The translations under genes and the position numbers were made by a program. This document shows positions 29,650 through 46,024 of a DNA stretch of 50,472 nucleotides, in pieces. The notes under the pieces are model-generated. The model was not told where the DNA came from. It worked only from the letters and a program-made list of their open reading frames with translations, and ran no database searches. The stretch comes from a virus. Its lineage: Duplodnaviria > Caudoviricetes. Location: IMG/VR virus record IMGVR_UViG_3300025018_000196, positions 1 to 50,472 of that record; one strand, given 5' to 3'. How positions within the stretch are numbered: position 1 is the stretch's first letter; every line of letters begins with the position of its first letter.

Positions 29650-29775
29650 ATGAAGCGCTTCCTTACTGACCACTTGACTAACGCGATGCTCGCGTACACG
29701 TACGCGCCTAACGCTGCCAGTCGCGCAGCGATTGCCGTTGCCCTTCACTACGCGCGCACGCTGGGGGAATCGTGA
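29650..29775 (+). CDS. 41-aa early protein not in ORF track
   Basis: GGAG RBS, MKRFLTDHLTNAMLAY..., TGATG coupling to the next gene. Confidence 0.5.
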   Translation: MKRFLTDHLTNAMLAYTYAPNAASRAAIAVALHYARTLGES

Positions 29776-30527: not shown

Positions 30528-30545
30528 TCCGACGGACGGTAGGCA

Positions 30546-30581
30546 GTGATCGCGCGGATCTTCCGATCCGTGCGATTCTGT
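30546..30581 (+). promoter_or_regulatory. 36-nt repeat copy 2, putative early promoter
   Basis: same bipartite motif as 29574-29609, 50 nt before ATG 30632. Confidence 0.6.
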
Positions 30582-30631
30582 CAATCGACCGAGCGCATTC
30601 GCGCTCAGCGCGCACACAAGGGGTAGCGCCT

Positions 30632-31336
30632 ATGCCCAAAATTTATGCGGACGACGCTGTGCGCTCAGCGCGCATCGCGTTCACGCAACGCCGCGAAGTC
30701 ATGCGCGCCATGCGCCAGGGCGGTGCGGCGCTAGCATCTGATCGGCCACGCGAGCGCGCGAGCGCTCGCTACAGTGTGCATAGACGCACTGTAGGCGCGA
30801 ACGGGATCCTAGTGCCCGCTACGTTCGGCGCTATCCGCGATGGTACGGTTGATTCCGTGCCCGGATTCGTGGCCATTACTGGCTACGAACTCGGGGCGCG
30901 GGTCGCGGGCGCGAACGTGAAACACGGCGAGGATACGCCAGCGTGGATCGCCGCCGAATCCAGGCGCACAAGTGTGCGCAAAGGATACGAAAGCGTGCGT
31001 CCGTCGTCATCTTCCGCGGCTATCAAACGTGCCGCGGAAGATGAAGCGATACGCGAGGTACTGATTGCCCGTGGTGGGCATGGCGCATTCGCTGAGTACG
31101 TGAATGGCGATGCCAAAGCACGGCGCAGACTACGCGCGCGCTTCGGTATAAAGGTACCGAAAGCTAAGGCGGTACCTACCGCGCGCGTAGAATCCACGCG
31201 GAAGGAATCCGAACGCGCGATGATTGCGGACGCAATGCGAGAGCAAGGCACGCTTACAATCTTTCGCCACGCGTGGAGCGTAGGCAATCTGGAATGTGCC
31301 GAGAAGCTGCTGGCAGAAGCGAAGGCGGCCCTTTAG
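30632..31336 (+). CDS. hypothetical basic early protein
   Basis: AAGGGG RBS, MPKIYADD start, followed by GGCGGCCCT/AGGGCCGCC hairpin. Confidence 0.6.
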   Translation: MPKIYADDAVRSARIAFTQRREVMRAMRQGGAALASDRPRERASARYSVHRRTVGANGILVPATFGAIRDGTVDSVPGFVAITGYELGARVAGANVKHGEDTPAWIAAESRRTSVRKGYESVRPSSSSAAIKRAAEDEAIREVLIARGGHGAFAEYVNGDAKARRRLRARFGIKVPKAKAVPTARVESTRKESERAMIADAMREQGTLTIFRHAWSVGNLECAEKLLAEAKAAL

Positions 31337-31349
31337 AGGGCCGCCGGTA

Positions 31350-31450
31350 TGCACTAATATGGTGCGCCTGGCGTGCACCAATATAGGGCATCCCTTTAGT
31401 CTAACTCGCAGGACTGGGCTGACAATTTTAATGTGCACTAATCATGTGCA
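31350..31450. promoter_or_regulatory. three NtrC-box-like 17-mers
   Basis: TGCACTAATATGGTGCG (31350), TGCACCAATATAGGGCA (31374), TGCACTAATCATGTGCA (31434) versus consensus TGCACCA-N3-TGGTGCA. Confidence 0.55.
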
Positions 31451-31481
31451 TATTAAAATGAACAGCACAGGAGTAATGCGT

Positions 31482-31790
31482 ATGATTCATGATCCCAAGG
31501 CATGGGCGTGCGTTCACGCGCACGTGAAGGCAGCACAGGCTGCTGTCGACAGGGCATGGGAAGAATACAGGCATGCCGAGCGCATGGTCGCGGCCTCTCA
31601 GGATGAAGGGACCAATATATATTGGTTATATTGGTCAGTCGAGAGGCAGGTCATTCAAGCGCGTGAGTACCGCAAGGCATGCAGTGCCCTAGACATAGCA
31701 GAAAGCTATGCCATTAGGTACTCGGGCTGGCGCATGGACAGAAGGTACATGTGGCAGTTGGCAATTGCCGAGGATCGTGCGCACGAGTGA
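31482..31790 (+). CDS. hypothetical early protein
   Basis: CAGGAG RBS, 102 aa. Confidence 0.55.
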   Translation: MIHDPKAWACVHAHVKAAQAAVDRAWEEYRHAERMVAASQDEGTNIYWLYWSVERQVIQAREYRKACSALDIAESYAIRYSGWRMDRRYMWQLAIAEDRAHE

Positions 31791-31955
31791 TCAGATTCAA
31801 GGGCAGGTATGCTTGCCCTTGTGTGTGTTCACTAGCATAGGAGGACACTGTATATGCCGGGTCTGTATCGCTGGAGGTCTCCAGCCTAGAGTGTATTTTA
31901 AAATAGAACGTACACTGTAGGCTGGGGATGTTCCCAGTGCAGAAGGACCACAACT

Positions 31956-32792
31956 ATGACCAAGTTCGAAAGACTGCCCACCGGGGCAGAGATCCGCAGC
32001 CTGCTGGCTGCACACATCGACACGTCAACCCTTGCAGGTATCTGCAAGTCTCTGATCTTCGTTGATACCTACTCGGCATCTATCGAAGCGGAGGTCAAGG
32101 TCTCTCGCGAGAGCTTGGCGGGTGCCATGCGTGACTTCGCCGTGATGGTGTACGACGTGCACCAGAACGACAAGGACACGTACGAGGCGGCTGGTGTGCG
32201 GTGGAACGAGGTGGCGTCACGCCTGTTCGAGTCGCAGTGCGACGAGGGCGAAGGCATGGTCGCGGCCGGGGCCAGTAAGGCCGGGCTGAAGAACTGGAAT
32301 CAGTACCGGAACAACCTCGTTCGGTGTATGAAGCTCGCCCGTAACGGAGAATTTTCGGAGCGGGACGAGGCTGGGAATTTCGTGCTCTCCGGCATGAACA
32401 AGATCACCGCGTTCAACAAGGAAGAGCAGGAACGCCAGGACGAGGCCGAGGCAGCGGAGGACGCCAAGCGACTGGCGGCGAAGGGCGTCACGCCCAAGCT
32501 GGTCAAGGCGGAGGACAAGGCCACCAACGAGGAAGGCTCGGCAACGGGGGATCTGTTGCTTGGCGGACTGCCCGAGGAGATACAGGATGCGCTCATGCTG
32601 TACATCGCCGGTGTCGACGAGTCCCTCAAGTACCGGAAGACCAGCGATGTCCTGCAACAGATCAATGCCCACGTGGGCAAGGTCAACAGCGCAGGACTGA
32701 GTGCCCGCCAGCATGCTGCACGTCAGGCAGCGGCGGCGGCACAGGCTGCCATCGACGAGATGGAGCAGGAGGCTGCCTCCAAGGTCGCCTGA
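31956..32792 (+). CDS. hypothetical helical early protein
   Basis: 278 aa, AAGGA RBS, strong G/C third-position bias. Confidence 0.8.
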   Translation: MTKFERLPTGAEIRSLLAAHIDTSTLAGICKSLIFVDTYSASIEAEVKVSRESLAGAMRDFAVMVYDVHQNDKDTYEAAGVRWNEVASRLFESQCDEGEGMVAAGASKAGLKNWNQYRNNLVRCMKLARNGEFSERDEAGNFVLSGMNKITAFNKEEQERQDEAEAAEDAKRLAAKGVTPKLVKAEDKATNEEGSATGDLLLGGLPEEIQDALMLYIAGVDESLKYRKTSDVLQQINAHVGKVNSAGLSARQHAARQAAAAAQAAIDEMEQEAASKVA

Positions 32793-32825
32793 TCCACCGG
32801 TCTCAGTGTCTTGATCCGGCATGAT

Positions 32826-32996
32826 AGGGGGCAGGTCCGTGTGGCTTGCCCCCTGTGCTCAGCAGGGAGAGTATCTCTGCCCTCTACCAGAGTTAAGAGG
32901 GTAGGACTATCTCTCTCGTGCTGAGCCATTTTAAAATCGCTTCGAGCGAAGGGGGACAGGACTGTCTCTCTTGTGCAAAGCGATTTTAAAATGGCT
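32826..32996 (+). repeat. three consecutive long hairpins including a perfect 19-bp inverted repeat
   Basis: AGCCATTTTAAAATCGCTT (32924) / AAGCGATTTTAAAATGGCT (32978); GCTCAGCA/TGCTGAGC; AGGGGGCA/TGCCCCCT. Confidence 0.8.
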
Positions 32997-33033
32997 TGCG
33001 CAAGCGAGCGAGCAAGCGAGCGAGGTGAACGAG

Positions 33034-33249
33034 ATGGGCAATGACTTGTGTCTCTACCTGTGCATGGTCCTCGACATTCGAGTCGAGGCAGCACGTGAGA
33101 TGGAACTCCTGATCAGCCTGCAACGTACGATCAGGAGCCCGGACGTACGTGAGACGAGGGCCGCACAGATCTACGCTCTCTCCGATTTCATCGAGCGCGC
33201 TCACGATGATCTCATGGAGGAGATGCGTCCGCAATGGGAGAGTGAGTGA
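33034..33249 (+). CDS. hypothetical protein
   Basis: GAGGT RBS, 71 aa. Confidence 0.6.
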   Translation: MGNDLCLYLCMVLDIRVEAAREMELLISLQRTIRSPDVRETRAAQIYALSDFIERAHDDLMEEMRPQWESE

Positions 33250-33551
33250 TGTCCGATACGAGGGTGAAGGTGATCACTCGTGCACCTACCCCGAAGGAAT
33301 TCGTGGAGACGTACAATTCCCTAATCGCAGAGAATCTGCGTCTCCATCGTAGGATCGAGGGGTTGGAGCACAGGTTGAAGATCGAGGGAGAACTCTACGC
33401 TACTCTAAGGGAGTCGTACGAGTTCTGTCTGAGAACTGTCCAGCTTGTGTTCAGGCAGACGGGATGGCTCCCATCTGCGTTCATTGATGAGGTGAAGAAC
33501 CCGCCTCCCAATATCAATTGGAAGAAGGCGAGGATTTCTTTCGACGAATAG
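33246..33551 (+). CDS. hypothetical coiled-coil protein
   Basis: 101 aa, GTGA overlap with the upstream gene. Confidence 0.65.
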   Translation: MMSDTRVKVITRAPTPKEFVETYNSLIAENLRLHRRIEGLEHRLKIEGELYATLRESYEFCLRTVQLVFRQTGWLPSAFIDEVKNPPPNINWKKARISFDE

Positions 33552-33947
33552 GGGCGACTGGCCCCCTTGCCAGGTAGATAGGAGCGCATGCCCCTTTGGC
33601 AAATGCTCCCTAACCTGGCGAAGCGCTGGCGGAGGGGTGGGTGGGACTGATGTGGTTGTGTGCCGAAGGACTGAGGACTAGTTATCTTTAGTCTTGAGGG
33701 GCATGACCACGACAGCAGAGAGTGCTGACATAGGGTATAGATGGAGCTGTATGGCTCTGTGAGCGGGGGTAAGGGCCACTGGTACCTACCTACCGGTCCC
33801 CTAGATAAACTCCGGAGGGAAGGGCTTGTGTGCCGCCTCTGCAGGGCGTGAGCGTACAAGTACGGGATAGTCAACGAGACTCGGCACATCCAGGACTTTC
33901 CAATAACCTTGGGTCGTCGCGAAGACTGGATGTGTCGGGTCTCACCA
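33552..33947 (+). ncRNA. structured non-coding block A, ending in a 72-nt hairpin with 3' ACCA
   Basis: no credible ORF; several long stems with G-U pairs. Confidence 0.55.
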
Positions 33948-33949
33948 TT

Positions 33950-34032
33950 GCCCGAGTGGTGAAACGGTAGACACCGGGGACTTAAAATCCCCTGCCATTG
34001 GCATGTGGGTTCGACTCCCGCCTCGGGCACCA
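33950..34032 (+). tRNA. tRNA-Leu (anticodon TAA)
   Basis: GCCCGAG/CTCGGGC acceptor, GGGGA-CTTAAAA-TCCCC arm, long variable arm, GGTTCGACTCC, encoded CCA. Confidence 0.95.
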
Positions 34033-34041
34033 TCGGATAAC

Positions 34042-34118
34042 GGGCCAGTAGCTCAGCTGGTTAGAGCAGTCGACTCATAATCGATTGGTCCTAGGTTCAA
34101 GTCCTAGCTGGCCCACCA
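34042..34118 (+). tRNA. tRNA with CAT anticodon, most likely tRNA-Ile2 (lysidine, reads AUA)
   Basis: full cloverleaf with CCA; CGACTCATAATCG arm as in E. coli ileX; lacks initiator features. Confidence 0.85.
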
Positions 34119-34322
34119 TATTAGCCGTCAACCATAGCTACGGCACCGTAGAAAGGGTACCCTTAAGCTATAGGGGTGTTACCTGAGTAGGTGAAGTAAG
34201 CGGAGGGTCAGCATTCGTAGCGTAACACATGTGGGTTATGCCCATAGGAGGTGTATCATGTAACACTTATCGTCTACCTCAATCCCCTTGTATAAAAAAG
34301 TGTCCAGCCCAAGAGTGGCATC

Positions 34323-34354
34323 GGGCCAGGTCACGCTAATTGTCTGGCCCACCA
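34323..34354 (+). ncRNA. minihelix copy of the tRNA(CAT) acceptor stem with ACCA
   Basis: GGGCCAG-GTCACGCTAATTGT-CTGGCCC-ACCA. Confidence 0.5.
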
Positions 34355-34440
34355 TATCACCTCGCTATCCTTAACAGGACGCGGGGTATTGGTGTGCCCA
34401 CTACTTGGTGGTCGATCAATCAACAATCGAGGTGAGTACC

Positions 34441-34743
34441 ATGAGAAAGTGGTTCAGGAAGAAAGGTGGAACACCCCCCTTCGTGGATGACAAGGGCTCC
34501 GACAACAACCTGCACGTGGTGGTGCAGGTGTTCGAGGGTGAGGCTCCCGACGCCCGAAAAGTGCAGGAGTTCAGTGTGAACTTCCTGTCCAAGAAGGGAC
34601 GCATCAGCATGCGCAAGACGGCACACTGGGCCATGTGCTCGGGGTATGTCATGCGTACCGTGCCGAAGCGGATCCCGAAAAGCGTGTGGGATCAACGGCA
34701 CGTCATGCCGGAAGCGGACGAGGAGCTGCGCCATGCCAGTTGA
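34441..34743 (+). CDS. hypothetical protein
   Basis: GAGGTG RBS, MRKWFRKK start, 100 aa. Confidence 0.7.
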   Translation: MRKWFRKKGGTPPFVDDKGSDNNLHVVVQVFEGEAPDARKVQEFSVNFLSKKGRISMRKTAHWAMCSGYVMRTVPKRIPKSVWDQRHVMPEADEELRHAS

Positions 34744-35008
34744 GATCAATCTCACCATCATAGGTGTGGTGTGTCTGTTGGTCAGCATCATGTTCGTGTA
34801 TCAGCTGGGCATGCTGCTGTTCGAGATCCTGCTATCTGTCGATGAGACTCGAGGGTGGATCAGTGCCCAGAAGTTGATCCCTCTCTCCGAGGTGCCGGCA
34901 ACTCAGCTCTTGATCAAGGAGCTCAGGTTCTTCACCGCCATCGGCCTCGTTCCGCCTGCTGTCGCAGCAATCGGATTCTTCTTCGTCTTCTGGGTGACGC
35001 TGTCATGA
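34733..35008 (+). CDS. small two-helix membrane protein
   Basis: GAGGAG RBS; two long hydrophobic segments. Confidence 0.7.
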   Translation: MPVEINLTIIGVVCLLVSIMFVYQLGMLLFEILLSVDETRGWISAQKLIPLSEVPATQLLIKELRFFTAIGLVPPAVAAIGFFFVFWVTLS

Positions 35009-35277
35009 TGAAGATGCAAGAGGTACACTACATTCCCGAGAATGGGAATGATCTGTGGATCTTCCTGGTCGAGCACACCAGGAACGGGGGCGTCGTCAAG
35101 GTGGGGAGCACGAGTGTCACCCGTGCCACCGACGATGGGTTCGTGTTGATGACGGACTTGGGAGGGGTACACTGCACCTCCACGCAGATGATGTCACGTT
35201 GTCGCACGATCTTTCAGGAGAGGGAGACCATCAAGGTCACCGTTCGTGAACCGGTGCCGGGACAGGAGGAGAAGTAA
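35005..35277 (+). CDS. hypothetical protein
   Basis: ATGA overlap, 90 aa. Confidence 0.65.
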   Translation: MMKMQEVHYIPENGNDLWIFLVEHTRNGGVVKVGSTSVTRATDDGFVLMTDLGGVHCTSTQMMSRCRTIFQERETIKVTVREPVPGQEEK

Positions 35278-35278
35278 C

Positions 35279-35473
35279 ATGGGCATGCGATGGGAAGAAA
35301 CGGAGAGGCAGATGGTGGAACAGTGCCTCTCCTGGGTAGCCGGTATGCCGTGGGAGGAAGGGGAGTTTGGGCTGCTCCTCCCCACGACAACCACCATACA
35401 CGAGGATGCCGAAAGGCTTCCTCTCGAATGGTCGGATGATGTGGAGCAGCACTTCGTTCTCTCCAACAACTGA
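35279..35473 (+). CDS. hypothetical acidic protein
   Basis: AGGAG RBS, 64 aa. Confidence 0.55.
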   Translation: MGMRWEETERQMVEQCLSWVAGMPWEEGEFGLLLPTTTTIHEDAERLPLEWSDDVEQHFVLSNN

Positions 35474-35905
35474 ATGGCTACGGCTAAGGGTAGGTACGCT
35501 TACCCTTACCCGTGTCCATGCGCCCGTTGGGATCAATGGACAGTAGCGTATACGTGTCCACCCTATCGTAAGTAGGGCACCTATGTGGTTGCGTATCGCC
35601 GCAAGCGTTAGCGCTTATTAGGAGCCCGAGCAAACGGCGGTCCCTAGGGATGCACGAACCGGACCTCGGGCGGCGTTGAGGCAAGGATGCCCGTTAACGT
35701 GGGACACAGAGAGGCTAAGCTTCCGGTCTCTCCACACTGCAGACGATATGATATCGGCCAAGACATGGCTGATGGATGTGATGATGCGGTGCCGGCAGTT
35801 CACTCCAGCCGGAACTCCTGGCCTACCCTAAGGGGACGGCCATGCAGGTTCGAATCCTGCCGCTCTATCGAGCGTGGTGGAATAGCGTGGAAACTCCACA
35901 CCCAT
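35474..35905 (+). ncRNA. structured non-coding block C, ending in a circularly permuted tRNA-like unit
   Basis: serial hairpins, then T-arm 35844-60, closed stem 35861-74, D-arm 35877-99. Confidence 0.6.
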
Positions 35906-36171
35906 GCGCGGCATACACGAGGAGACAGTGGACAAGAAGCCAGACTGATTCTGTTTCGATGGAGATACCGACGTGAGTAACTCGGTACGTCTGCAACATG
36001 GCGTGCCTTGTGAACAGTTCGTAGGTACCATGATGTCCAGCGTGGGAGTACAGTGCGAGGGCACTCACGACTGGAGCCACATCAAAACGTACATCTCCAA
36101 GGCCGGGGCGCTTGCCCCGATTCTGCGAGCGGGGCGGCGCCGTCACTCCAATCCTCACTGGAGAATACGGT

Positions 36172-39147
36172 ATGGCCGTAGCCAAGAGGGAGAGAGGGGC
36201 GTCGGAGGCCAGTCCGCCGATATCCCCTCCGTTACTGACAGGCAACTCGCGGATCAAGGTACCGAAAAAGACGAGGAAGGTTGACGTTTCCAGCGTTGAC
36301 GACCCTCTCAATCTGTCCAACGTAACAGCCATCTCAAAGGTGTTGGGCAGAGGGTCATTCAATTCGGATGTGGAGTACCAGCTCTATCTGGAATTCCGCA
36401 AGCTGAAGGTGCCTTCATTGCCGAGGGTAATCGAGGAACCGGTGACTCCAAATGCAAAGGTACTCCCCTTTGCACCGCCAGCCTCGACGAGCAAGGACGA
36501 TGCCATCCGTTACCAGCGGTGGCTAGTCAACAATCAAGCAGTCGGATACACCAAGGGTGTGAAGACTGCAGGTACCATCCTGGTTGATTACATTGACCGG
36601 GATGGATCGAGTCGGACTCTTCAGGTGAATCATCGGGTTGATACCCCGGTGAATCACTACGACAAGCACTACCTTGTCTCCCCGCCAGGAAGAATCCCTT
36701 TCTGGATGGAGATACCGGATGTGCCTTACTCCATGGTGACATGGGTGGGGTACACTCACAGCCAGGCACCCGCCGCTTGGATAAAAGCCAAGCACCGTGC
36801 CACGGCGAGGCGTGAGAAGTCAGTTCGAAAAAGAGGGAAGCGGAATTCTCATCCCTCTACCGCTGGAATGTATACCTATCAAATGGGAGACATGAAGACG
36901 GTACTCCGCACGATCACTCCATCGTTGAGGTGGTTCTTAGACCACCCCGATGGTACCGGTATGTTCCGGGACTCGGCATATCCTAACGGGTACGTCGACA
37001 ACCCCGATCTTACCGGGATTTGTGAGTCTACTGAGGGGGACAATCCAATATCCCCTCAGCTTTGTCCCAGCTGTGATAGAACCGCAGTTGTCCGGGGCAT
37101 GCTCGTTCGTGACAAGGATGGGCATGTGACCGAGAATATGAGCACGAAGTACGTGTACTGTGCGTGCTGCGATTGGCGGAAAGAATCAACAATGGAGCAC
37201 GTTGCTCGTCCGATTCAACAAGAGCGTGAGAACGCTCATGTCCGTGATGAACCTCTCAATTCGAAGTTAGTCACGGTGGACGAGGAAGAGGTGGCACGTG
37301 AGCCATCGGAGTTCCACTCCTCCAACCACGCCCGACTGGGGTATTGCACCAAGTGCAAAGAGAATGGGTTTGCATACAACCTTCGTCTGAGCGAAGGGCA
37401 TACCTACTTTGCGTTTGTGTGCGGTCACTGTGGTGCAGAGGACCAGTGGGCGCCAGCTTCCCGCCCTTGGGTTGAGTCATCTCCGGATGAAGAAGAGCCC
37501 GTATCGTTGCAGGTTCAAGAAGGGAATGACTGCCTGGTATGTGGAGGGCCGGTTGAAGAAACAACCTTCAGCCACTCTCATTGTGCATACTGCGGCTTCT
37601 CTGAATCTCTGGCCAAGAACGACAGTGCATGGAGTTCGGAAGACTCAACGATCAACTTGGAAAGACAGGTGATCGATCTCACCAATCCGATACAAGCAGA
37701 GAAAAACCTGGCGGCTTATCGAGAGCTGATCAGATCTCAATTGCTGGACATCATGGAAGTCGAGGCGGAGATGCGCATCAAGCGCATGTGTATTGAGGTA
37801 GGCATCCCACCTGCCAAGGCTGAATGGTACTGCAGACCTGAGAACCAGGCTGCATTCCGTGTGGCCTACGGGTTTCGAAGGATGGGCCTTGATGCTCAAC
37901 ACTCCATCAAGATGCACCGTGAGATCGGATGGGTGAGACGACGGAGAGGTACGGTCAATGCCTCCCGAAGCGGGGCAAGTGACAGGAAGATACAGTTCCT
38001 CCTGAATCGCTCGCTGCGGCTTCAGAAGAAGTACGCGTTCGATCATGATCGAGACGTCGTGGTTACCAAGCGATGGTTCGGAGAGTACGCCGGGACTCCG
38101 GTCCCTGATCCGGGAGATTTCCACCCCATGGATTTGAGGTGGCGATTGGGCACCCGGTTCACCAAGCTACTTGCTCTCACTCCAGCATCGAATCGTGGAA
38201 AGGGTACGGTGATGCGGTACGTATTCCACAATGCAGGGCCAATGGCTGGCACAGTGTTGTCTGTCCACCTGTACAAGATGTTGGCCAAGATAACCTACCT
38301 CCGTAGTAAGTGGTTCTTGCTTACGGAGTACGGTGAAACTTGGGACCAGTACTACAATCGCTGGGAGAAGTACGGTAACTACCGTATGGAATACCCATTA
38401 GATCCACCGCTGCCAGCCTCTATTGCTCGGTTATCCCCCGAGTACTACAACAAGCTGAGTAGATTCCAAAGGTGGGTCATTGACTGCGGCGACCCGAACT
38501 CTCAGAAGACGGTCACTCGCCCTACATTGAGGGCTGTTGCTCGTCAGAAGAGACTGGAATCCGAGAGGATCAGGAAGTTGGGAGCGCGGACCATTCGTCA
38601 GAAGATCTCTGACGGATGGAATGAACTCAAGGATAGTGTAACACGGGAGCAATCCTTCCGTCTGTCCTTTGCTACCATCGACAAGTGGAAGTACCGCTTC
38701 CGCACTGACGAAGAGAGGTTGGACTATTGGCCATCACTGACGTTCATGAACTGGATGGCAGCGGCTGAGGATCCCACCCTTCAAGCTCACCTTCGTCACA
38801 AAGACTGGCTCAAGCGACTGCAACTGCGCTTGAATGACCTGCCTCTTGATGAGGACGGTGCCAGCCCCGGAGAGCAAGGCAGCCCGGGCAATGATGAGGA
38901 GAAGGAAGCGATCATTACCGCTCAGTCCTACTCCGCTCCACCGGAGCCGAAGCCGGTGACCAACGAAGAAGATGCGAAGAAGATTCGTGATCTCACCGAT
39001 TCAATCTTCCAATATGCACATGCCCTGATAAAGCACGGTGTGGGAGAACGTCGGGTACGTGAAGATGCGCGCAACCTTGAGCGTTATCTGAACAATGTTG
39101 TCATCATCGGCGAAGAACGGCCCGAGATAAAAATCGTCATTCCCTGA
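36172..39147 (+). CDS. 991-aa orphan protein with three zinc ribbons
   Basis: GGAGA RBS; CPSC/CACC, CTKC/CGHC and CLVC/CAYC pairs. Confidence 0.8.
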   Translation: MAVAKRERGASEASPPISPPLLTGNSRIKVPKKTRKVDVSSVDDPLNLSNVTAISKVLGRGSFNSDVEYQLYLEFRKLKVPSLPRVIEEPVTPNAKVLPFAPPASTSKDDAIRYQRWLVNNQAVGYTKGVKTAGTILVDYIDRDGSSRTLQVNHRVDTPVNHYDKHYLVSPPGRIPFWMEIPDVPYSMVTWVGYTHSQAPAAWIKAKHRATARREKSVRKRGKRNSHPSTAGMYTYQMGDMKTVLRTITPSLRWFLDHPDGTGMFRDSAYPNGYVDNPDLTGICESTEGDNPISPQLCPSCDRTAVVRGMLVRDKDGHVTENMSTKYVYCACCDWRKESTMEHVARPIQQERENAHVRDEPLNSKLVTVDEEEVAREPSEFHSSNHARLGYCTKCKENGFAYNLRLSEGHTYFAFVCGHCGAEDQWAPASRPWVESSPDEEEPVSLQVQEGNDCLVCGGPVEETTFSHSHCAYCGFSESLAKNDSAWSSEDSTINLERQVIDLTNPIQAEKNLAAYRELIRSQLLDIMEVEAEMRIKRMCIEVGIPPAKAEWYCRPENQAAFRVAYGFRRMGLDAQHSIKMHREIGWVRRRRGTVNASRSGASDRKIQFLLNRSLRLQKKYAFDHDRDVVVTKRWFGEYAGTPVPDPGDFHPMDLRWRLGTRFTKLLALTPASNRGKGTVMRYVFHNAGPMAGTVLSVHLYKMLAKITYLRSKWFLLTEYGETWDQYYNRWEKYGNYRMEYPLDPPLPASIARLSPEYYNKLSRFQRWVIDCGDPNSQKTVTRPTLRAVARQKRLESERIRKLGARTIRQKISDGWNELKDSVTREQSFRLSFATIDKWKYRFRTDEERLDYWPSLTFMNWMAAAEDPTLQAHLRHKDWLKRLQLRLNDLPLDEDGASPGEQGSPGNDEEKEAIITAQSYSAPPEPKPVTNEEDAKKIRDLTDSIFQYAHALIKHGVGERRVREDARNLERYLNNVVIIGEERPEIKIVIP

Positions 39148-39486
39148 CGAAGTGGCGGCAAATTAGCTCGGCCTTTCTGACGAGTACCCGTCCGGATTGA
39201 AACCCCGGGCGGGAGTCAGGTGCAAATCCTGATTCAGAGGTGAACCTCCAAGCTTCATCTGGTCGAGGGAAATCTAGGTTCGAATCCTAGCAGGAGCCTG
39301 GCGCAGCTCATGTCGGCAATTGAGTCCGAGGTACATTCGCAGAATTCGGTTGAATAAAGCAAATCAATGCGCGTCTTGGGATGGGCTACACAAACCGGGC
39401 CCGAGGCTAAGAAGACATGATACTCTGCGGTACACTCGCAACCTCGTAGGAGGTACCACACCACACTAGTTGAAGAGGATTTTGCA
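39148..39486 (+). ncRNA. structured non-coding block E with tandem partial tRNA modules
   Basis: D-arm + GAA anticodon arm + T-arm-like (39164-39232); D-arm + T-arm (39251-39290). Confidence 0.6.
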
Positions 39487-40146
39487 ATGTCAAATTCCCC
39501 CGGTCGTGGCATCCGAATCGCCCGACGTACGATCTACCGGGTCAAGATGAGGCCCGGCCCAGGGGAGAAGTCGGTACCATGGTACCAATACAGGGTGCTC
39601 GGCTTTCTTTGGTGGAGATGGCATACTCCGGTTGCCAATAACCTCAATGCACTGCGGCTAAGAGGTGTTACACTCATCGCAGAACTTGAGGAGTTGAAGC
39701 CAAAGCTCGCCGAAGCCGAGCGCGAAGTCAAGCAAGCAATTGCTGACGTCCAAAACTCCACACTGGGTGTTGTTTCACATCCTTTCGAAGCGGACTGGGC
39801 ACCTCGAGTGCCGGCTATCCCTGATGCCGAGAAGGCCTACAAGGAATCCATAACTTCCCTCGGGAAGCTTCGTGGGCTCCGGTCCAGGGCTAGTCCCCGA
39901 TCCGTTGAGGAAGCAACTGCATCCACCTACCTCCCATCGGACAGGCTTCTTCAAGGATTCTACAATCGTGAGAAACTTGGAGAAAACTACGATCATGTGA
40001 TCGATTTCAAACCTGAGAGGGAGCAGCAACAGCAGCAAGGTAGGAAGAATCGGGGTCGAGGTCAAAACAACAATCAGGGAGGGTCCAACTCGGGTGCAAA
40101 CTCGATCACTATCGCTCTCCCAGGCGAGGATAACAGTAGCAATTAG
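39487..40146 (+). CDS. hypothetical protein with coiled coil and Q/N/G-rich tail
   Basis: 219 aa, GAGGA RBS. Confidence 0.75.
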   Translation: MSNSPGRGIRIARRTIYRVKMRPGPGEKSVPWYQYRVLGFLWWRWHTPVANNLNALRLRGVTLIAELEELKPKLAEAEREVKQAIADVQNSTLGVVSHPFEADWAPRVPAIPDAEKAYKESITSLGKLRGLRSRASPRSVEEATASTYLPSDRLLQGFYNREKLGENYDHVIDFKPEREQQQQQGRKNRGRGQNNNQGGSNSGANSITIALPGEDNSSN

Positions 40147-40272
40147 GATGGATAGTTCCAACATTGGCAGTCACTGGCCATTCCATCCAACCCTGTAGTC
40201 AGGGCTGAGGGTGTGACTCAGAGCTGGTCGCACCCTCCACCGTGACAATGGGTCACATACTGGAGAGAGCTA

Positions 40273-40857
40273 ATGGGTAGAACCCTACTCATCTGGGGTA
40301 CACTTGGCCTCGCCAAGTTGTTCCTTCCGAAGCCGAAGCTGGTGCCTTACACCGAGAATATCGAAATCACCATCCTCTGGCATCTTGTCAACGGTCCCGA
40401 ATTTATTCGGGATCTGGAAAGGATCTTAGGACGTGATTTCGATCTCAACAGTTGGTCATCTCCGCTTCGATTGGTTCGGGAGGTGAAGGATCTTATCACC
40501 AACAAGCCTGTTGGGTATCACGTGTACCCTCAGTCGGTGGATATGATCGTGACACAGGATCAACTTCGGGAACTTCGAAAGTTCTCCGGCCTGATAATCC
40601 TGCATCACCACTACCAAATGAAGGAGCCGGTATACTATGTGAATGGGAGATACTTGAATCCCATTCGCATGGGGATGTGCAAGCACTGCGGCATCGCGGA
40701 TGATGACGAAATGTGGTCAGAGGATGATGACGCGTATTACCACGGCTGTGGAAACTGCGATGCCGCCGAAGGCCAGGGTTTCACAAGCTTTCAAAACTTG
40801 TCTGCCAAGGAACGGCGGACATTCATGGCGAAGCTGCCGAATTACAAGGACGAATGA
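40273..40857 (+). CDS. hypothetical protein with C-terminal CxxC...CxxC zinc site
   Basis: CKHC...CGNC; GGAG RBS. Confidence 0.7.
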   Translation: MGRTLLIWGTLGLAKLFLPKPKLVPYTENIEITILWHLVNGPEFIRDLERILGRDFDLNSWSSPLRLVREVKDLITNKPVGYHVYPQSVDMIVTQDQLRELRKFSGLIILHHHYQMKEPVYYVNGRYLNPIRMGMCKHCGIADDDEMWSEDDDAYYHGCGNCDAAEGQGFTSFQNLSAKERRTFMAKLPNYKDE

Positions 40858-40878
40858 GGCAGTTCAACGGAGAGAACT

Positions 40879-41349
40879 ATGAAGTTCTTGGTGGAGATAT
40901 GGAACGGATACAGGTCCGTGGCAATGGGGGCACTCCTCGCCCTCTTCCTCTGCGTGGGCTGGGCAGTGACGTATGCTGCCTCGGCTCCGCCGGAGAGCCC
41001 GCCGGTCGGTGATTCCGATCCGGTGTTACTCGAAGAAGTGCCGGCTCCGGAGGAACTCGGGTTCGTGGAGAAGCGAATCCGATCCTTCTGCGTGGCGCAA
41101 GGTGCTCAGTACGAGGCTGAACTCCTCGAGCGGAGTGCCGATCTCGATGATCGGGAAGCCGATCTGGCCGATCTGGAGGAAGAGCTTCGCACTCGTGAAG
41201 CTCGAATCCAGGAGGGCAGGCTCATCATCATGAAGATGAAGCAGGCCTTCGAGGGGGAAGTGCAGAACTACGAACGGGTCGTGAACACGGTGCGTGGTCA
41301 CCTGCATACCCTGGATACCATCTCCGTCGGTGACGGGGAGGGTGGCTGA
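40879..41349 (+). CDS. membrane-anchored coiled-coil protein
   Basis: N-terminal hydrophobic helix, acidic heptad region. Confidence 0.75.
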   Translation: MKFLVEIWNGYRSVAMGALLALFLCVGWAVTYAASAPPESPPVGDSDPVLLEEVPAPEELGFVEKRIRSFCVAQGAQYEAELLERSADLDDREADLADLEEELRTREARIQEGRLIIMKMKQAFEGEVQNYERVVNTVRGHLHTLDTISVGDGEGG

Positions 41350-41624
41350 TGCTGCGCGACCTGCAACGGGTCGCCAATGACGGACGGAGGACGCTCGTTC
41401 TGAGCGTTCTCCTCCTCAGCGTGGCGGCATTCGACCGTGACTTCATCATCACGGTCCTCACCCTGGTGCTCTTCGCTTCCGTAACGATCTATGGTTACGT
41501 GTGGTACAACGAGTCACTGGGCCCATTCATCAACAAGGAGAACGACGATGCCACGAGGGAAGCGACGGGGGCCGATCTCGGACATCAGCATACCGGGGAC
41601 GGTGGTTCAGAACAGAGCGGGTAA
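41349..41624 (+). CDS. small membrane protein
   Basis: two hydrophobic segments, TGATG coupling. Confidence 0.65.
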   Translation: MLRDLQRVANDGRRTLVLSVLLLSVAAFDRDFIITVLTLVLFASVTIYGYVWYNESLGPFINKENDDATREATGADLGHQHTGDGGSEQSG

Positions 41625-41877
41625 CGCGGGGCAACAGACCATTGTTGCTCCGCCCCGCAAACTGAAGGCTGTTTGGAGAACACTCATCATGCTCTCCATC
41701 ATCCTCCCCACGGCTCTGTCCGGCTCCATGCTACTGGGTATGTATGACCCAGCGGCTTTCAATTCGGCAATTCCCGATCGGTTGCCGGATAACTTGGATT
41801 CGGTTGTGTGTACGACCATCTTCGTACTCGCGTTCTTCGGCTTGGTCTTCGTGTCTCAGCTGGAAACGAGCGACTGA
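41548..41877 (+). CDS. small two-helix membrane protein
   Basis: AAGGAG RBS before ATG 41548; two hydrophobic segments. Confidence 0.65.
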   Translation: MPRGKRRGPISDISIPGTVVQNRAGNAGQQTIVAPPRKLKAVWRTLIMLSIILPTALSGSMLLGMYDPAAFNSAIPDRLPDNLDSVVCTTIFVLAFFGLVFVSQLETSD

Positions 41878-41955
41878 ATGGGAGCCGCCCTTCGGGGCGG
41901 CCTCCCCTGTCGTGAGGCACTGATCTCCGGTGCCTGACCACAGAGGAGAACCCTC

Positions 41956-42165
41956 ATGTTTCTTTTCGTCATATTCGTACTCTTCAACGATGGCTCCTCT
42001 ACTTCCATCGAGAGGATGTACGATACGAGATTGGAGTGTGTCACCGCTCAGGTAAAACTGAGCGATCAGATCCGTAAGGGTGAGATCGACACATCCCATT
42101 GGGCTCCGGGTAGCTACTCGGAGTGCCACTTCAACCCCACAGTGAAGGAGACATTCGAACTGTGA
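41956..42165 (+). CDS. small protein with hydrophobic leader and two Cys
   Basis: GAGGAG RBS; MFLFVIFVLF leader. Confidence 0.65.
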   Translation: MFLFVIFVLFNDGSSTSIERMYDTRLECVTAQVKLSDQIRKGEIDTSHWAPGSYSECHFNPTVKETFEL

Positions 42166-42938
42166 TTGAAGTTGAGCTTGCTATCATCACTGCGGAGTTG
42201 ATCATTCCCGCATTGGTGGTGTTAGCAATACAGGCTCTCAGCGTGGAGATAGGAGAGCGAAGCCTGGCCTCTCCATCCTACTTCTCCTCGCCAGTCCACG
42301 CGTCAAGTGGCAGTGGGTACCTGAGTCGGGTACCGCCAGCGTGGTCGGAGCGTGACCCGGGCATTTGATCCAGGCTCCATGGGTGCGTTGGAGTGCCGTG
42401 TACTGCCAGCCACGGACAGTCTCGACCGAACATGGGGCCGGTAAATCCAGGGTAAGACCCGGGCAATTCAAGCTGGGCTGGCCAGCGCTTGGGCTCAACT
42501 CTACGGCTACCACGTGAAACTACGTAATGCTGACGGGCTGAACCAGTGAGGTAGCGTGCCACCTGTCGTTTGGGATGGTACGTGGGAGGTTTGATTCCTC
42601 TGTACAGTAAGCCGTCTACGGACGATATCTCCTGTCTAGGGGATGGGTAAGGTATCGCAGTCTATTACGTAGGTTAAGCGTTCATCCGTACCAAGGCTAA
42701 TACATGCGTGCTACTGCGTTCGAATCGCAGATCCCCCCGTGGGGGAGCGTTGTCATCCCGACCTGATAAGCGGGCACTGGCGGGTGTAGGTGCTGAGGTA
42801 GAAGAAGGTAGGTGCATCCCTTAAGACCCGGGTGGAACCCGTTAACATCTTACAACGGTGGTGCGGATTGACGACCCGCGTAAGGAAGGAAACTCCAGTC
42901 AGTCATCGACGCCAAACCTTTGGATTAGGTGAGAGCCT
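42166..42938 (+). ncRNA. ~770-nt highly structured non-coding block D
   Basis: long-range stem 42170-77/42493-500, many hairpins, two T-arm-like modules (42585-601, 42714-30). Confidence 0.6.
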
Positions 42939-43169
42939 ATGAAAGTCGATGCAAGAAAGGTGATTGGTGATGCTGTACTCCAGTTAATCACGATCATCCT
43001 ACTGATCTTCGTCCTTTGTACGCATGCAACTCTCTATGTTGCAGCAGAAAGTATGGACACCAAGCTGGATATGCTGGCCAACGACCTCGTCCAACCCCCA
43101 GGTAAGTCATACCTCGCCCTTTGGGCTGAGAAGTGTGGCACCTATGCTTGGCAGCCATGTAAGGAGTAG
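42939..43169 (+). CDS. small membrane-anchored protein
   Basis: AGGTGA RBS, one hydrophobic helix. Confidence 0.6.
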   Translation: MKVDARKVIGDAVLQLITIILLIFVLCTHATLYVAAESMDTKLDMLANDLVQPPGKSYLALWAEKCGTYAWQPCKE

Positions 43170-43216
43170 CCTACAGAGGACGTTAAACCAACAATCAACA
43201 GAAGGAGAGGCCAGGT

Positions 43217-43366
43217 ATGAAGAACCGAGCCGTACACCTGGCACTGAATCAACAGCAGTGCATGTTCAACGCCATGATGGCTGAGCTGCGAACAGCAGCG
43301 AATACATTGGAAGGCGAAGAGCTTCTTAATTCCATGCGGGAGATCGAGCAACGTCACTGCAATTGA
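43217..43366 (+). CDS. 49-aa protein not in ORF track (MKNRAVHLALNQQQ...)
   Basis: AAGGAGAGG RBS. Confidence 0.5.
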   Translation: MKNRAVHLALNQQQCMFNAMMAELRTAANTLEGEELLNSMREIEQRHCN

Positions 43367-43427
43367 CAAGGAGTTCAGCATGAAGGTGCTGGATGATGAG
43401 TTGGTGGAGCCCCCGTAATAGGGGCTC

Positions 43428-43493
43428 TGGGGTATAGTGTAATAGCACACTCAGCCTTGAACTGAGAGGTGTGGTTCGAATCCACTGCCCCAA
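43428..43493 (+). tRNA. degenerate tRNA-Gln(TTG)-like gene
   Basis: TGGGGTA/TGCCCCA acceptor with U1-A72, CTCAG-CCTTGAA-CTGAG arm, GGTTCGAATCC; lacks D-loop GG, U33 and CCA. Confidence 0.55.
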
Positions 43494-43577
43494 TGGTGAG
43501 CATGCACCATCTTCGCATGCATTCAAGAACGTACGTAAACTCCACGCACGTACTTCTGAAGGCCCTGTGATGAGGAC

Positions 43578-43781
43578 ATGAAAATGTTTTTCCTCACAGC
43601 CATCGGCGTCCCACCAGACATGTCAATGTGGCTGATGGGCCCGATGTTCGTCCAAGTCCGGGTGATGGTGTCAGCTGTTAATGCCCGATACCTGCAACGT
43701 GTGCAGCGGGAAAGGCTGTTATCCATGAGTCCCGGGGATCAGTACCGCTATCATCTGATGGCGGGTGGTTACCGTCCTTAA
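43578..43781 (+). CDS. hypothetical protein
   Basis: 67 aa, GAGGA upstream. Confidence 0.5.
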   Translation: MKMFFLTAIGVPPDMSMWLMGPMFVQVRVMVSAVNARYLQRVQRERLLSMSPGDQYRYHLMAGGYRP

Positions 43782-43793
43782 CTGGAGACCGCC

Positions 43794-44042
43794 ATGATCG
43801 GCGAACTTTGGAAGAAGGCGACCGAACACAGCGTTACCTGGTTCGCATCCGGGGTACAGACGTGGGTCACAGGGGCATTCCCCCTTGCCATCATGTATCC
43901 CAACTGGGCAATCGATCTCAGCGCCAAGGTTTTGGTTCCGGCCAAGATCTGGGTGATCGAGACTGGTTGGCCCGCTGCCTCCAATTACTTCGAGGCAGCG
44001 ATGGATGTGGTCGGGATGCTGAAGTTCGGCGCCACGGCGTAA
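43794..44042 (+). CDS. hypothetical hydrophobic protein
   Basis: GGAG RBS, 82 aa. Confidence 0.6.
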   Translation: MIGELWKKATEHSVTWFASGVQTWVTGAFPLAIMYPNWAIDLSAKVLVPAKIWVIETGWPAASNYFEAAMDVVGMLKFGATA

Positions 44043-44081
44043 TCAACGCCTGACCCTTTGAAGATTGGGTAGGAGGAAAGG

Positions 44082-44246
44082 ATGCATAATCCCAGGATTC
44101 TGGAAACCCTTAAGATGTTCGAAGCAATGACGAACAAGCACTCGGAAGATCTCTTCCGCAGTTCGATTGTTTGGGATTGCTTCCGTGATCCGGATGAGTA
44201 CATCGTCCAGGTTGCGGGTCGTCTAGTACTGGAGTTCAAGCACTGA
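44082..44246 (+). CDS. 54-aa protein not in ORF track (MHNPRILETLKMF...)
   Basis: AGGAGG RBS. Confidence 0.55.
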   Translation: MHNPRILETLKMFEAMTNKHSEDLFRSSIVWDCFRDPDEYIVQVAGRLVLEFKH

Positions 44247-44338
44247 TCCAATGTAAAGATCTTGCATTGGCTTGAACTACTGGAGACCTCCTTAGTCTAA
44301 TGAAAGTTATCATCTCATTGGACATAGGAGGTCACTAG

Positions 44339-46024
44339 GTGAAGACTGAACTTCAGAAAGGAACCTTTGTGGACAGGGGGCCGTGTACTAAGTGCACTAG
44401 CTCTGACGCAATGGCAGTGTATCGGCAGGACGACGGGTCCTACGATGCTACGTGTTTCTCGTGCGGGCACTATGAATCTGATTACGATTGGGACAAGCCA
44501 AGAACAGCTAACCAAGCTGAGGCAGGTGAGGCTAACGTACGCAGTATGTTTACAGTCTCCACATGCTCTATGTGTCCGCACTCCGCCTTCTCGGATCGAG
44601 GCATTCGCTTCGAGACAAATGAGTTCTACGGTGTACGCTCCGCCCTCAATCAGAATGACGGCAGTACCGTAGCAGCTCACCTCTATCCCTACTTCAAGGG
44701 AAATATTTTAACTGGCTATAAGAAACGTGATGCTACTGTTAAACGATTCACATCCATAGGAGATTGTAAGGACGTAGATTTATTTGGCATGCATTTGTTC
44801 TCAGAAGGGGGGCGTAGGCTATACATCACTGAGGGTGAACTTGATGCTCTTTCCTTGTTTCAAGTACTGAAGGATCAAGCAGGCCCTGAATACAAACACA
44901 TGAATCCTTGTGTTGTATCCCTCCCCCATGGTGCGCGCAACTGTGTTGCCGCATTGTCCCACAATAAGGACTTCATCTCTAAATTTGAGATGATAGTTCT
45001 TGTCTTCGACAATGATCAGCCAGGTCAAGAAGCATTAGAGCTGGCTTGTTCCATCCTCGATCCAACCAAAACATACGTTGCTAAGTTCAGCGAGAAAGAT
45101 GCCAACGCCATGCTCATGGCAGGCAAGGAAAAAGAACTCAAGTGGAGCTGCATTAATGCACAAATTTATACACCCTCTGGAATATGTACTGTTGACGATA
45201 TCTACGACGATGCAATGTCTAGCCCTAGTGTCGGCAAACCTTGGCCTTGGCCCTCTCTCACCCGTCTCACTTACGGTCGTCAGCCTGGCGTCTACGGCTA
45301 CGGTGCTGGGGTTGGTGTTGGGAAAACAGAAGTCTTCCACGAAATAATAGAGCACATAGTATATGACGAACAAAGTCCTGTCGGAATCTTTCTTTTTGAA
45401 GAAGCTAAAGAAAGAACTCTCCGAATCCTTGGAGGAAAGCGGATTAATAAGCCTGTTCATAGACCCGATTGTGACTTCGATGAACAGGAACTACGAGCTG
45501 CTCTCGATGAGCTTCGACTTCCAAACAAGGTCTACCTCTTTGACAATAAGAGAGGTGACCGAGACTGGAAAACAATTTACAATCAGTGTCGACATCTGAT
45601 TGTAGTCCACAATGTCAAGGACATCTTCATCGATCCCCTCACAGCAGTGATTGCTCAAGAAGAGAACACTGACCGCACTCTGCATGCCATCATGGATGAC
45701 ATGTCCCGCCTCACGCACGAACCATACAATGCATCTATTCATTATTCTTCTCACCTTAACGAGCCTAGCCGTGACCGTACTTCACATGAGGAAGGTGGAC
45801 GCGTTACTGAATCTCAATTCGCTGGCTCTCGTGCAATGGTTCGCTTCTCGGACTACATCTTCGGGCTCGAAAGAAACAAACAACATCCAGACGAAGTCTC
45901 ACGTAACACAGTAACCTTCCGTATTCTTAAGGATCGTATGTATGGTAGTGCAACAGGTGAAACTTTTGACCTGTTCTACAATCATACTACAGGTAGGATG
46001 ACGGAATTACAATCAGAATTCTAA
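44339..46024 (+). CDS. T7 gp4-like DNA primase-helicase
   Basis: CTKC..SD..CFSC zinc finger, ITEGELDALS and FDNDQPG TOPRIM, GAGVGVGKT Walker A, FIDPL, GLERN; AGGAGG RBS. Confidence 0.95.
   Translation: MKTELQKGTFVDRGPCTKCTSSDAMAVYRQDDGSYDATCFSCGHYESDYDWDKPRTANQAEAGEANVRSMFTVSTCSMCPHSAFSDRGIRFETNEFYGVRSALNQNDGSTVAAHLYPYFKGNILTGYKKRDATVKRFTSIGDCKDVDLFGMHLFSEGGRRLYITEGELDALSLFQVLKDQAGPEYKHMNPCVVSLPHGARNCVAALSHNKDFISKFEMIVLVFDNDQPGQEALELACSILDPTKTYVAKFSEKDANAMLMAGKEKELKWSCINAQIYTPSGICTVDDIYDDAMSSPSVGKPWPWPSLTRLTYGRQPGVYGYGAGVGVGKTEVFHEIIEHIVYDEQSPVGIFLFEEAKERTLRILGGKRINKPVHRPDCDFDEQELRAALDELRLPNKVYLFDNKRGDRDWKTIYNQCRHLIVVHNVKDIFIDPLTAVIAQEENTDRTLHAIMDDMSRLTHEPYNASIHYSSHLNEPSRDRTSHEEGGRVTESQFAGSRAMVRFSDYIFGLERNKQHPDEVSRNTVTFRILKDRMYGSATGETFDLFYNHTTGRMTELQSEF

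Follow-up and report, generated by a model that had tools for sequence, protein, structure and literature searches.

Fragments of tRNA genes are a known kind of element, and the two units in the phage spacer described here belong to it. The first unit is closest to the tRNA-Phe(GAA) genes of phages. At 11 loci in IMG/VR these genes have the anticodon arm CCGGAUUGAAACCCCGG, and unit 1 has the same 17 nt, including the A31·C39 mismatch and C38; the D-arm start TAGCTC and the order D-arm, anticodon arm, T-arm are also common to both. Several of the phage genes have odd T-loops too, for example TGCGAAC at locus L048 and TGCAAAT at locus L020.

For the second unit the nearest parallel lies in the partial tRNA genes that integration or recombination at tRNA genes leaves behind, which consist, in the section of that work on which we draw, of a T-arm and one acceptor strand (PMC9897764). 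Unit 2 resembles them in having just these parts with unrelated sequence upstream, and a 14-nt repeat of tRNA-Met lies nearby. It differs from the cases in that section in that the setting is a lytic-type phage rather than a cell, with no integrase and no full-length counterpart. In plant mitochondria, t-elements are non-canonical tRNA-like sequences with a perfect GGTTCRANYCC T-arm, located in the leaders and spacers of messages, where they and acceptor-like stem–loops act as cleavage signals for RNase P and RNase Z, according to the portion of the study cited here (PMC1920247). The t-elements of that portion have an acceptor-like stem and mapped RNA ends, whereas unit 2 shares the motif, has no acceptor pairing supported in the wider ensemble and is known from its sequence.

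The only Rfam family that matches in the spacer is mascRNA/MEN-beta (RF01684), a small mimic of acceptor and T-arm, at 39255-39297. This is a vertebrate family, and with 15.5 bits (E 4.1) against a gathering threshold of 42.5 the resemblance is one of shape only. The phages T4, P1 and P7 make small stable RNAs that are tRNA-like or processed by RNase P, from tRNA-region or early transcripts. Those are discrete processed RNAs with a partial tRNA shape, whereas the units of the spacer are read from DNA alone.

Genomic setting of the spacer

The window, by which we mean the whole stretch of DNA analysed, comprises a complete virus record (IMGVR_UViG_3300025018_000196, 50,472 bases) from a podovirus-like phage. 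Between about 2.4 and 29 kb the minus strand carries the genes for portal, capsid, tail, terminase and internal virion protein, and those for a T7-type primase/helicase, a family A DNA polymerase, an exonuclease and endonuclease I lie on the plus strand from 44.3 kb. Between the structural and the replication genes, from 29.5 to 44 kb, is a plus-strand block with a G+C content of 53-66% (versus about 46%), which holds three tRNA genes among ORFan genes and is interrupted by several long untranslated gaps; about 1.7 kb of this 14-kb early block is untranslated. The only tRNA genes found in the window by ARAGORN at its default and by Rfam at the gathering threshold are Leu-UAA, Met-CAU and Gln-UUG, at 33950, 34042 and 43428 respectively, and the tRNA-Gln is minimal, at 66 nt. 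A Pfam scan of 56 ORFs gave no integrase or recombinase family, although ORFans could hide one, and no tRNA-repair, nuclease-inhibitor or other tRNA-linked or anti-defence gene.

The spacer and its surroundings have the following features, in positions of the window, with P taken from the 39100-39530 ensemble.

36112..39147, plus strand: upstream ORFan gene, 1011 aa, stop codon TGA at 39145-47
39148..39486, plus strand: untranslated spacer of 339 nt between two early ORFan genes
39157..39165, plus strand: GGCAAAT and TA, read by eye as the remnant of a tRNA 5' acceptor strand and U8-A9, without a complementary 3' strand
39164-39232, plus strand: unit 1, evidently tRNA-Phe-derived
39166..39185, plus strand: putative D-arm remnant GCTC(G)-10 nt-(C)GAGT (TA 39164-65, GCTC 39166-69, GAGT 39182-85)
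39187..39213, plus strand: extended anticodon-type arm, 9 bp and A·C, loop UUGAAAC; P 0.86
39214..39234, plus strand: T-like hairpin, core TCAGG-TGCAAAT-CCTGA at 39216-32, extended to 7 bp; P 0.89
39237..39248, plus strand: small hairpin GAGG-UGAA-CCUC; P 0.93
39258..39298, plus strand: unit 2, tRNA 3'-half fragment
39258-73, plus strand: possible anticodon-loop or variable remnant of unit 2
39274-90, plus strand: T-arm of unit 2, CTAGG-TTCGAAT-CCTAG, perfect
39291-97, plus strand: 3' acceptor strand of unit 2, CAGGAGC; discriminator C at 39298, no CCA
39306..39325, plus strand: third 'D-like' hairpin GCTCA-10 nt-TGAGT (GCTCA 39306-10, TGAGT 39321-25); P 0.04
39473..39489, plus strand: Shine-Dalgarno-like AAGAGGA and ATG of the 219-aa gene
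39487..40146, plus strand: downstream ORFan gene, 219 aa

Neither a sigma-70-like promoter nor a plus-strand terminator-like site was detected within 39148..39486, and the ORFs of the spacer are short, none of them credible or supported. The 1011-aa ORFan belongs to no Pfam or PHROG family, the Atlas returned nothing usable for it, and a protein search found only the protein itself among 5.8 billion; for the 219-aa ORFan, Pfam, PHROGs and the Atlas gave no family.

The early block and the spacer are without a relative in any collection searched. A blastn search with 39100-39520 against 50,697 phage records returned zero matches, and unit 1 alone matched no phage tRNA by blastn, giving one chance 18-mer. 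In IMG/VR, back-translated queries from the primase and from the proteins of 1011 aa and 219 aa found no relatives. Searches with gapped DNA patterns yielded in one case 2 loci (a stretch without a tRNA call, coding by eye, and a normal tRNA array), in another 0 loci and in a further one 32 loci, 31 of them unrelated and 1 a true tRNA-Phe.

By ARAGORN and Rfam, neither unit 1 nor unit 2 is a tRNA gene. RF00005 had no match in 38900-39700 at E up to 10, and Rfam at loose thresholds over the spacer gave noise only. When the ARAGORN threshold was lowered to 80%, unit 2 scored 87.7 amid a noise of 45 other calls scoring 80-97, and the low-threshold calls beside the orphan T-arms described below (84-95) were likewise within noise.

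Unit 1 and the tRNA-Phe genes of phages

An exact-string search of IMG/VR with the inner 17 nt of the anticodon-type arm (39192-39208) returned 14 loci, 11 of the tRNA-Phe type and 3 in unrelated coding sequence. At all 11 the 17-mer forms the anticodon arm, and the acceptor stem of the surrounding cloverleaf is paired; 7 of the genes are ARAGORN calls at the default threshold, and 4, which have unusual T-loops, were read by eye. The UUGAAAC loop with its closing A·C mismatch is, as these loci indicate, a common phage tRNA-Phe arm. In unit 1 the loop A-TTGAAAC-C occupies 39196-39204, with GAA at 39199-201, and tops a 9-bp stem with the strands CCCGTCCGG (39187-95) and CCGGGCGGG (39205-13), one T-G pair included. 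Of the two units, only unit 1 has an anticodon arm with a 7-nt loop, U33, a purine at 37 and a 5-bp stem.

Two further comparisons point the same way, each with a bias of its own. A descriptor that combines TAGCTC, no more than 45 nt upstream, with a hairpin having U33 and R37 and, at a distance of at most 8 nt, a T-like arm occurs twice in the window, in tRNA-Met and in unit 1, and any occurrence was seen in 1 of 1000 shuffles, a figure that is generous because the descriptor was written after unit 1 had been seen. A covariance model of the tRNA-Phe family, trained on 9 genes (9 of the 11 loci contributing one apiece) and 2 other tRNA-Phe genes, placed 39175-39242 second in the whole window (20.6 bits, E 4e-4), with a score inflated by the choice of training genes through the same 17-mer. 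With a general tRNA model built for this analysis, unit 1 was not among the matches up to E 10.

Unit 1 retains, in the order of the family, a 5' acceptor-like strand, U8-A9, the D-stem TAGCTC...GAGT, the anticodon arm and the T-arm, and its GGCAAAT-TA matches in position GGCACTG-TA and similar sequences of the phage genes. Its T-like loop, TGCAAAT, has G at the position of U55, and the same loop is present in the true tRNA-Phe and tRNA-Met of metagenome locus L020. Unlike the phage tRNA-Phe genes, unit 1 lacks the 3' acceptor strand, which leaves the acceptor unpaired, and has an oversized D-loop of 10-12 nt. A 5-nt insertion, CCCGU, before the anticodon stem pairs with an altered variable loop, GCGGG, to give 9 pairs and A·C, so that 5 extra pairs replace the free variable loop. 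In the discriminator position unit 1 has G, and 90% or more of the 11 family members carry A there. With these gains and losses, unit 1 evidently descends from a phage-type tRNA-Phe(GAA) gene.

The initial annotation of this DNA had described the spacer as two complementary tRNA-like units, and all of the sequence motifs that it listed for 39148..39486 are present where it placed them. For unit 1 it had named a 9-bp stem with a GAA-centred, tRNA-Phe-like loop and the hairpin TCAGG-TGCAAAT-CCTGA; both hold up, with P 0.86 and 0.89, and the inner 17 nt of the former are those of the 11 phage tRNA-Phe-type genes. These two and the 39237-48 hairpin (0.93) are the only robust hairpins in the 39100-39530 ensemble. 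The D-arm that it assigned to unit 1 exists in the sequence and forms in an isolated 76-nt fold, but has a P of about 0 in the wider ensemble. The absence of pairing acceptor strands is true of the canonical register, in which GGCAAAT (39157-63) has no ATTTGCC partner. One alternative acceptor has 6 pairs (39175-80 with 39234-39) and is of chance quality, similar complements being present at 2-3 upstream offsets for each 3' strand tested.

Folding energies do not set the spacer apart. Unit 1 alone (39160-39235) has a z of -3.58, with 1 of 200 shuffles as stable, whereas 76-nt segments over unit 1 range from -1.4 to -2.75, and among 1100 plus-strand segments of 76 nt from 29.5-50.4 kb z averages -0.87, with the 5th percentile at -3.57. 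For the whole spacer z is -1.67 on the plus and -0.57 on the minus strand. The stability of the spacer is thus ordinary for the phage genome. An internal duplication of the spacer was considered and rejected, as 285 of 1000 shuffles aligned equally well.

Unit 2 and other orphan pieces of tRNA

Unit 2 is the T-arm and 3' acceptor strand of a second tRNA gene. Over 25 nt (39273-39297) it is identical to the 3' terminus of a called tRNA in two phage tRNA arrays of IMG/VR, and the identity of unit 2 to real tRNAs ends at the acceptor end. The general tRNA model places its best match after the three real tRNAs at 39227-39297 (15.2 bits, E 0.05), and blastn gave a weak match at 39258-39291, 88% identical to a Caulobacter phage tRNA-Gln in its 3' half (E 0.1). 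Unit 2 also matches the tRNA-Arg(TCG) of two candidate-phyla-radiation (CPR) genomes, with 21 nt exact and 25/26 nt matching. Among millions of tRNAs, a match of 21 nt would, roughly estimated, be near chance expectation, and we therefore name no donor for unit 2. A link to a host through the two CPR genomes was rejected, as neither the terminase nor either of the other orphan 3' halves has a match there.

Within the window, the best partial repeat of unit 2 is 18/21 nt with tRNA-Met, and a decayed whole copy of tRNA-Met was rejected as its origin, the global alignment of unit 2 to the tRNAs of the window being not significant (z 1.68). The window contains no full tRNA with the 3' end of unit 2, and none of the form GCTCCTG...CAGGAGC. 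No in-register 5' strand complementary to CAGGAGC was found in unit 2, the best 5-bp options having P ≤0.01; a GCUUC/GGAGC acceptor-like pairing forms in a 95-nt fold and has P 0.01 in wider context.

For this unit the earlier description fared well on sequence and less well on folding. The T-stem was said to equal that of the tRNA(CAT), and it is identical to the tRNA-Met T-stem at 34091-34107. The unit had been called anticodon-less, and we too found no convincing anticodon arm. A D-arm-like part was proposed upstream, and its sequence is there (AGCTTCATCTGGTCGAGG at 39251-68, followed by GAAAT at 39269-73), but it is not predicted to fold. CTCC (39246-49) and GGAG (39293-96) do flank the T-arm in the sequence, but their pairing has P 0. 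The further GCTCA..TGAGT arm is likewise present as sequence and has a P of only 0.04. In the 39100-39530 ensemble acceptor-type pairings are all at or below 0.01, and the T-arm of unit 2 itself reaches 0.19.

The matches described in this and the preceding section show both units 1 and 2 to be evidently tRNA-derived.

The window has 3 strict T-arms, defined as 5 Watson–Crick pairs around TTCGAAT, at 35844, 39274 and 42714, whereas 300 dinucleotide shuffles had a mean of 0.0033 and a maximum of 1. All three are on the plus strand in untranslated gaps, none is inside a called tRNA, and they precede the next start codon by 197-310 nt.

A further piece lies near tRNA-Met. The 14 nt CTGGCCCACCATAT at the 3' end of this gene are repeated 236 nt downstream, and with a second GGGCCAG the repeat makes a 7-bp hairpin, identical to the acceptor stem of tRNA-Met, followed by ACCA (34323-34354). 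This cut-down acceptor copy is 204 nt past tRNA-Met and has 22 nt identical to its parent. The two additional orphan T-arms, in other long untranslated gaps, and the cut-down copy fit a context of tRNA-gene turnover.

Probable turnover relics and the alternatives

We consider the best explanation of the two spacer units to be that they are relics of tRNA-gene turnover, and would put its chances at about even. The accessory block would once have held more tRNA genes, including a tRNA-Phe of a common phage type, and deletions, insertions and recombination at tRNA sequences would have left fragments. In unit 1 the 3' acceptor strand would have been lost, the D-loop enlarged and 5 pairs gained at the base of the anticodon stem; in unit 2 the 5' half of a second tRNA gene would have disappeared or been overwritten. 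Transcription of both units is presumably passive, within the plus-strand early message between the 1011-aa and 219-aa genes. The T-arms of the two units are 58 nt apart, and this spacing, which is too short for a whole tRNA, fits a deletion. Unit 1 keeps a 5' acceptor-like strand and TAGCTC, which a decoy would not need, and this fits descent from a whole gene.

Several observations nevertheless count against reading the units as relics. The arms of unit 1 are all fully paired, at 5/9/7 bp against 4/5/5 in the parent family, and the 5-bp extension needs two matching changes, for which we estimate that random decay would account in about 1-3% of cases. A hairpin template-switch could, as a single event, yield the extension without selection. 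All three orphan T-arms are flawless, while the remainder of the cloverleaf has disappeared in every case; about 1.7 kb of the early block is untranslated, in spite of the compactness of phage genomes; and the Met acceptor mini-hairpin retains 22 nt of its parent. Such observations may be signs of selection or of very recent events. If the units are relics, they provide a worked case of phage tRNA-gene fragments that gene finders rightly skip, and the orphan phage formerly had more tRNA genes, including a tRNA-Phe of a widespread phage type.

It is also conceivable, although we think it rather unlikely, that the units are processing or stability signals in a long early transcript, in the manner of t-elements. 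RNase P, RNase Z or the CCA-adding enzyme would recognize the mimic of T-arm and acceptor, with cutting between the messages for the 1011-aa and 219-aa proteins. Unit 2 carries the exact GGTTCGAATCC motif at 39277-87, outside any tRNA gene, and each of the three orphan T-arms, on the coding strand of an untranslated gap, lies 197-310 nt upstream of the next start codon. At 34323-34354 the hairpin combines a 7-bp acceptor stem with a trailing ACCA, the classic minimal substrate of RNase P, and the true tRNAs of the same transcript need excision in any case. However, unit 2 has no acceptor helix that is stable in the ensemble, its three candidate pairings having P ≤0.01 and its T-arm 0.19, no CCA follows it, and unit 1 is without any acceptor.

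A broader proposal, to which we attach a low probability, is that this phage keeps mimics of tRNA parts in the untranslated gaps of its early transcript, either as nuclease sponges or as message punctuation guided by tRNA enzymes. The set would comprise a Phe anticodon loop on a rigid helix of 10 layers with its T-like arm (39187-39234), T-arm and 3'-acceptor pieces (39274-39298, 35844 and 42714) and a Met acceptor mini-helix with ACCA at its end (34323-34354), all of them candidates. If true, this would be a non-coding layer of counter-defence or processing that is undescribed for phages; the targets of a sponge would be host nucleases that cut tRNA loops or tails, and phages would be using pieces of tRNA, rather than whole tRNAs, against host tRNA enzymes and tRNA-cutting immunity.

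The decoy idea of the initial annotation we regard as improbable. In this view a rigid helix in unit 1 would display the anticodon loop of tRNA-Phe, unit 2 would offer its T-arm, and the two would soak up or inhibit host defence nucleases that target tRNA. Numerous tRNA-cleaving defences have been published, as the cited portion of one article sets out (PMC10264068). The loop and inner stem of unit 1 are identical to those of real phage tRNA-Phe genes, its stem is stabilized to 9 bp and robust in the ensemble, and there are several mimics of tRNA parts within the one genome. Against this, no bacterial nuclease specific for tRNA-Phe was found among the literature matches listed, no paper on phage-encoded tRNA mimics or RNA decoys was found in a search that covered articles without their supplements, and the terms decoy, mimic and tRNA-like were all absent from the tRNA-defence papers that were text-searched. 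A passively transcribed spacer would be unlikely to outnumber cellular tRNA. Unit 1 keeps parts that are of no use to a decoy (the 5' acceptor-like strand and TAGCTC), an 'elbow' requires pairing of a D-loop with a T-loop and the folding prediction contains neither of the D-like arms, and neither relatives nor, among the 56 ORFs, a linked anti-defence gene were found.

Similarly improbable is the possibility that unit 2 is the core, or a relic, of an attachment site, that is, a copied 3' end of a host tRNA used now or formerly for integration. It is exactly the part that such sites carry, a T-arm and 3' acceptor strand with unrelated sequence upstream, in the section of the work consulted on this point (PMC9897764). 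The phage comes from aquifer and hot-spring samples and unit 2 has the 21-nt exact, 25/26 match to CPR tRNA-Arg(TCG), and the 14-nt direct repeat at tRNA-Met shows that such events take place in the phage genome. But no integrase or recombinase family was seen in the 56 ORFs scanned, and the phage has no full tRNA with the 3' end of unit 2, the nearest being tRNA-Met at 18/21. The two CPR genomes match neither the other two orphan 3' halves nor the terminase, and the 21-nt match itself is, by our rough estimate, probably near chance.

We give very little credence to a cis-acting leader of the 219-aa gene, in which 39221-30 would pair with the ribosome-binding site (39476-86) and gate translation. 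The minimum-energy fold of the spacer does include this pairing, a complement of 10 nt with one bulge, but its P is about 0.1 against 0.89 for the competing T-like hairpin, and a single complement of such size in 339 nt is weak evidence.

In a normal tRNA, the anticodon stem, the pair 26-44 and the D-stem make up 10 layers. That unit 1 is a working D-arm-less tRNA-Phe (39175-39240), with a 6-bp acceptor and a 10-layer anticodon helix in place of the stacked D-stem, is hardly credible: the alignment by the tRNA-Phe model has the same layout, the 10 layers match the normal helix and the tRNA-Gln of the phage is also minimal at 66 nt, but the acceptor pairing has a P of about 0 and competes with the P 0.93 hairpin, the acceptor complements are of chance-level quality, the G discriminator departs from the A of at least 90% of the 11 family members, there is no CCA, and ARAGORN makes no call even in mitochondrial mode.

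The samples that yielded the phage are from aquifer and hot-spring sources, and the runs listed for its sequence include no RNA run; an independent run from 2025 has an identical phage sequence, with zero differences in the spacer, and in other runs the phage is nearly unchanged and the spacer is without a listed difference.

tRNA-Met-like repeats and other tRNA-like elements

A hairpin resembling part of the tRNA-Met gene and a start-stop pair lie a short way downstream of that gene:
34041-34121, tRNA-Met
34246-34263, AGGAGG Shine-Dalgarno sequence with ATG TAA
34323-34354, hairpin GGGCCAG-14 nt-CTGGCCC-ACCA

The hairpin lies 204 nt past the true tRNA-Met gene, and its stem is the exact tRNA-Met acceptor stem, followed by ACCA. 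It is the sole case in the 29.5-44.5 kb interval in which ACCA directly follows a 7-bp hairpin. The 14-nt CTGGCCCACCATAT occurs as a direct repeat, with copies at 34108 and 34344, and the 8-nt CGGGCCAG is likewise repeated. The hairpin looks like a copy of tRNA-Met minus the D, anticodon and T arms. Enclosed by these tRNA-Met repeats is the strong Shine-Dalgarno sequence with its start-stop pair, ATG TAA; CATAGGAGGT of this site is found again upstream of the primase start at 44323.

Further elements resembling parts of tRNAs, and one short tRNA gene, lie downstream:
35844-35860, flawless T-arm, loop TTCGAAT, in an untranslated gap at about 35473-36110
42714-42730, flawless T-arm, loop TTCGAAT, in an untranslated gap at about 42500-42940
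43428-43493, tRNA-Gln(UUG), 66 nt

Neither T-arm belongs to a called tRNA; the second is closed by 6 bp of acceptor-like pairing (42639-44 with 42731-36). The tRNA-Gln(UUG) scores 53 bits against Rfam despite its small size, with a 4-nt D-loop that lacks GG and a short variable loop.

tRNA genes in other loci

An AT-rich, 2.8-kb metagenome contig, L020, carries seven tRNA genes and one tmRNA call (159-2279), and in both its tRNA-Phe and its tRNA-Met position 55 of the T-loop is G, the loop having the unusual sequence TGCAAAT. Among the IMG/VR loci L041-L054, eleven phage tRNA-Phe-type genes have an identical 17-nt anticodon arm, that of unit 1, but diverge widely in the acceptor, D and T arms. 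The T-loops of 4 of the 11 are non-canonical, and these genes are not called by ARAGORN at its default threshold.

The surrounding block, the record ends and other samples

Two further features of the record:
29500-44000, plus strand, 14-kb ORFan block
78-380 and 49627-50058, ORFs matching Phage_endo_I, at both record ends

The G+C content of the block is 53-66%, vs about 46% elsewhere, and the block is rich in hairpins, with z below -5 in many 76-nt windows (for example, -7.7 at 33642-33717). Because independent contigs span its right border, this junction is not an assembly chimera. The Phage_endo_I match of the first terminal ORF is limited to profile positions 46-132; the paired matches may reflect either a truncated second copy or terminal redundancy of the record.

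The same phage was found in a 2025 hot-spring run and in 2017 aquifer runs. Over 33000-44500 in the runs concerned (X2, X5, X7 and X8), two single-letter changes are seen across these 11.5 kb.
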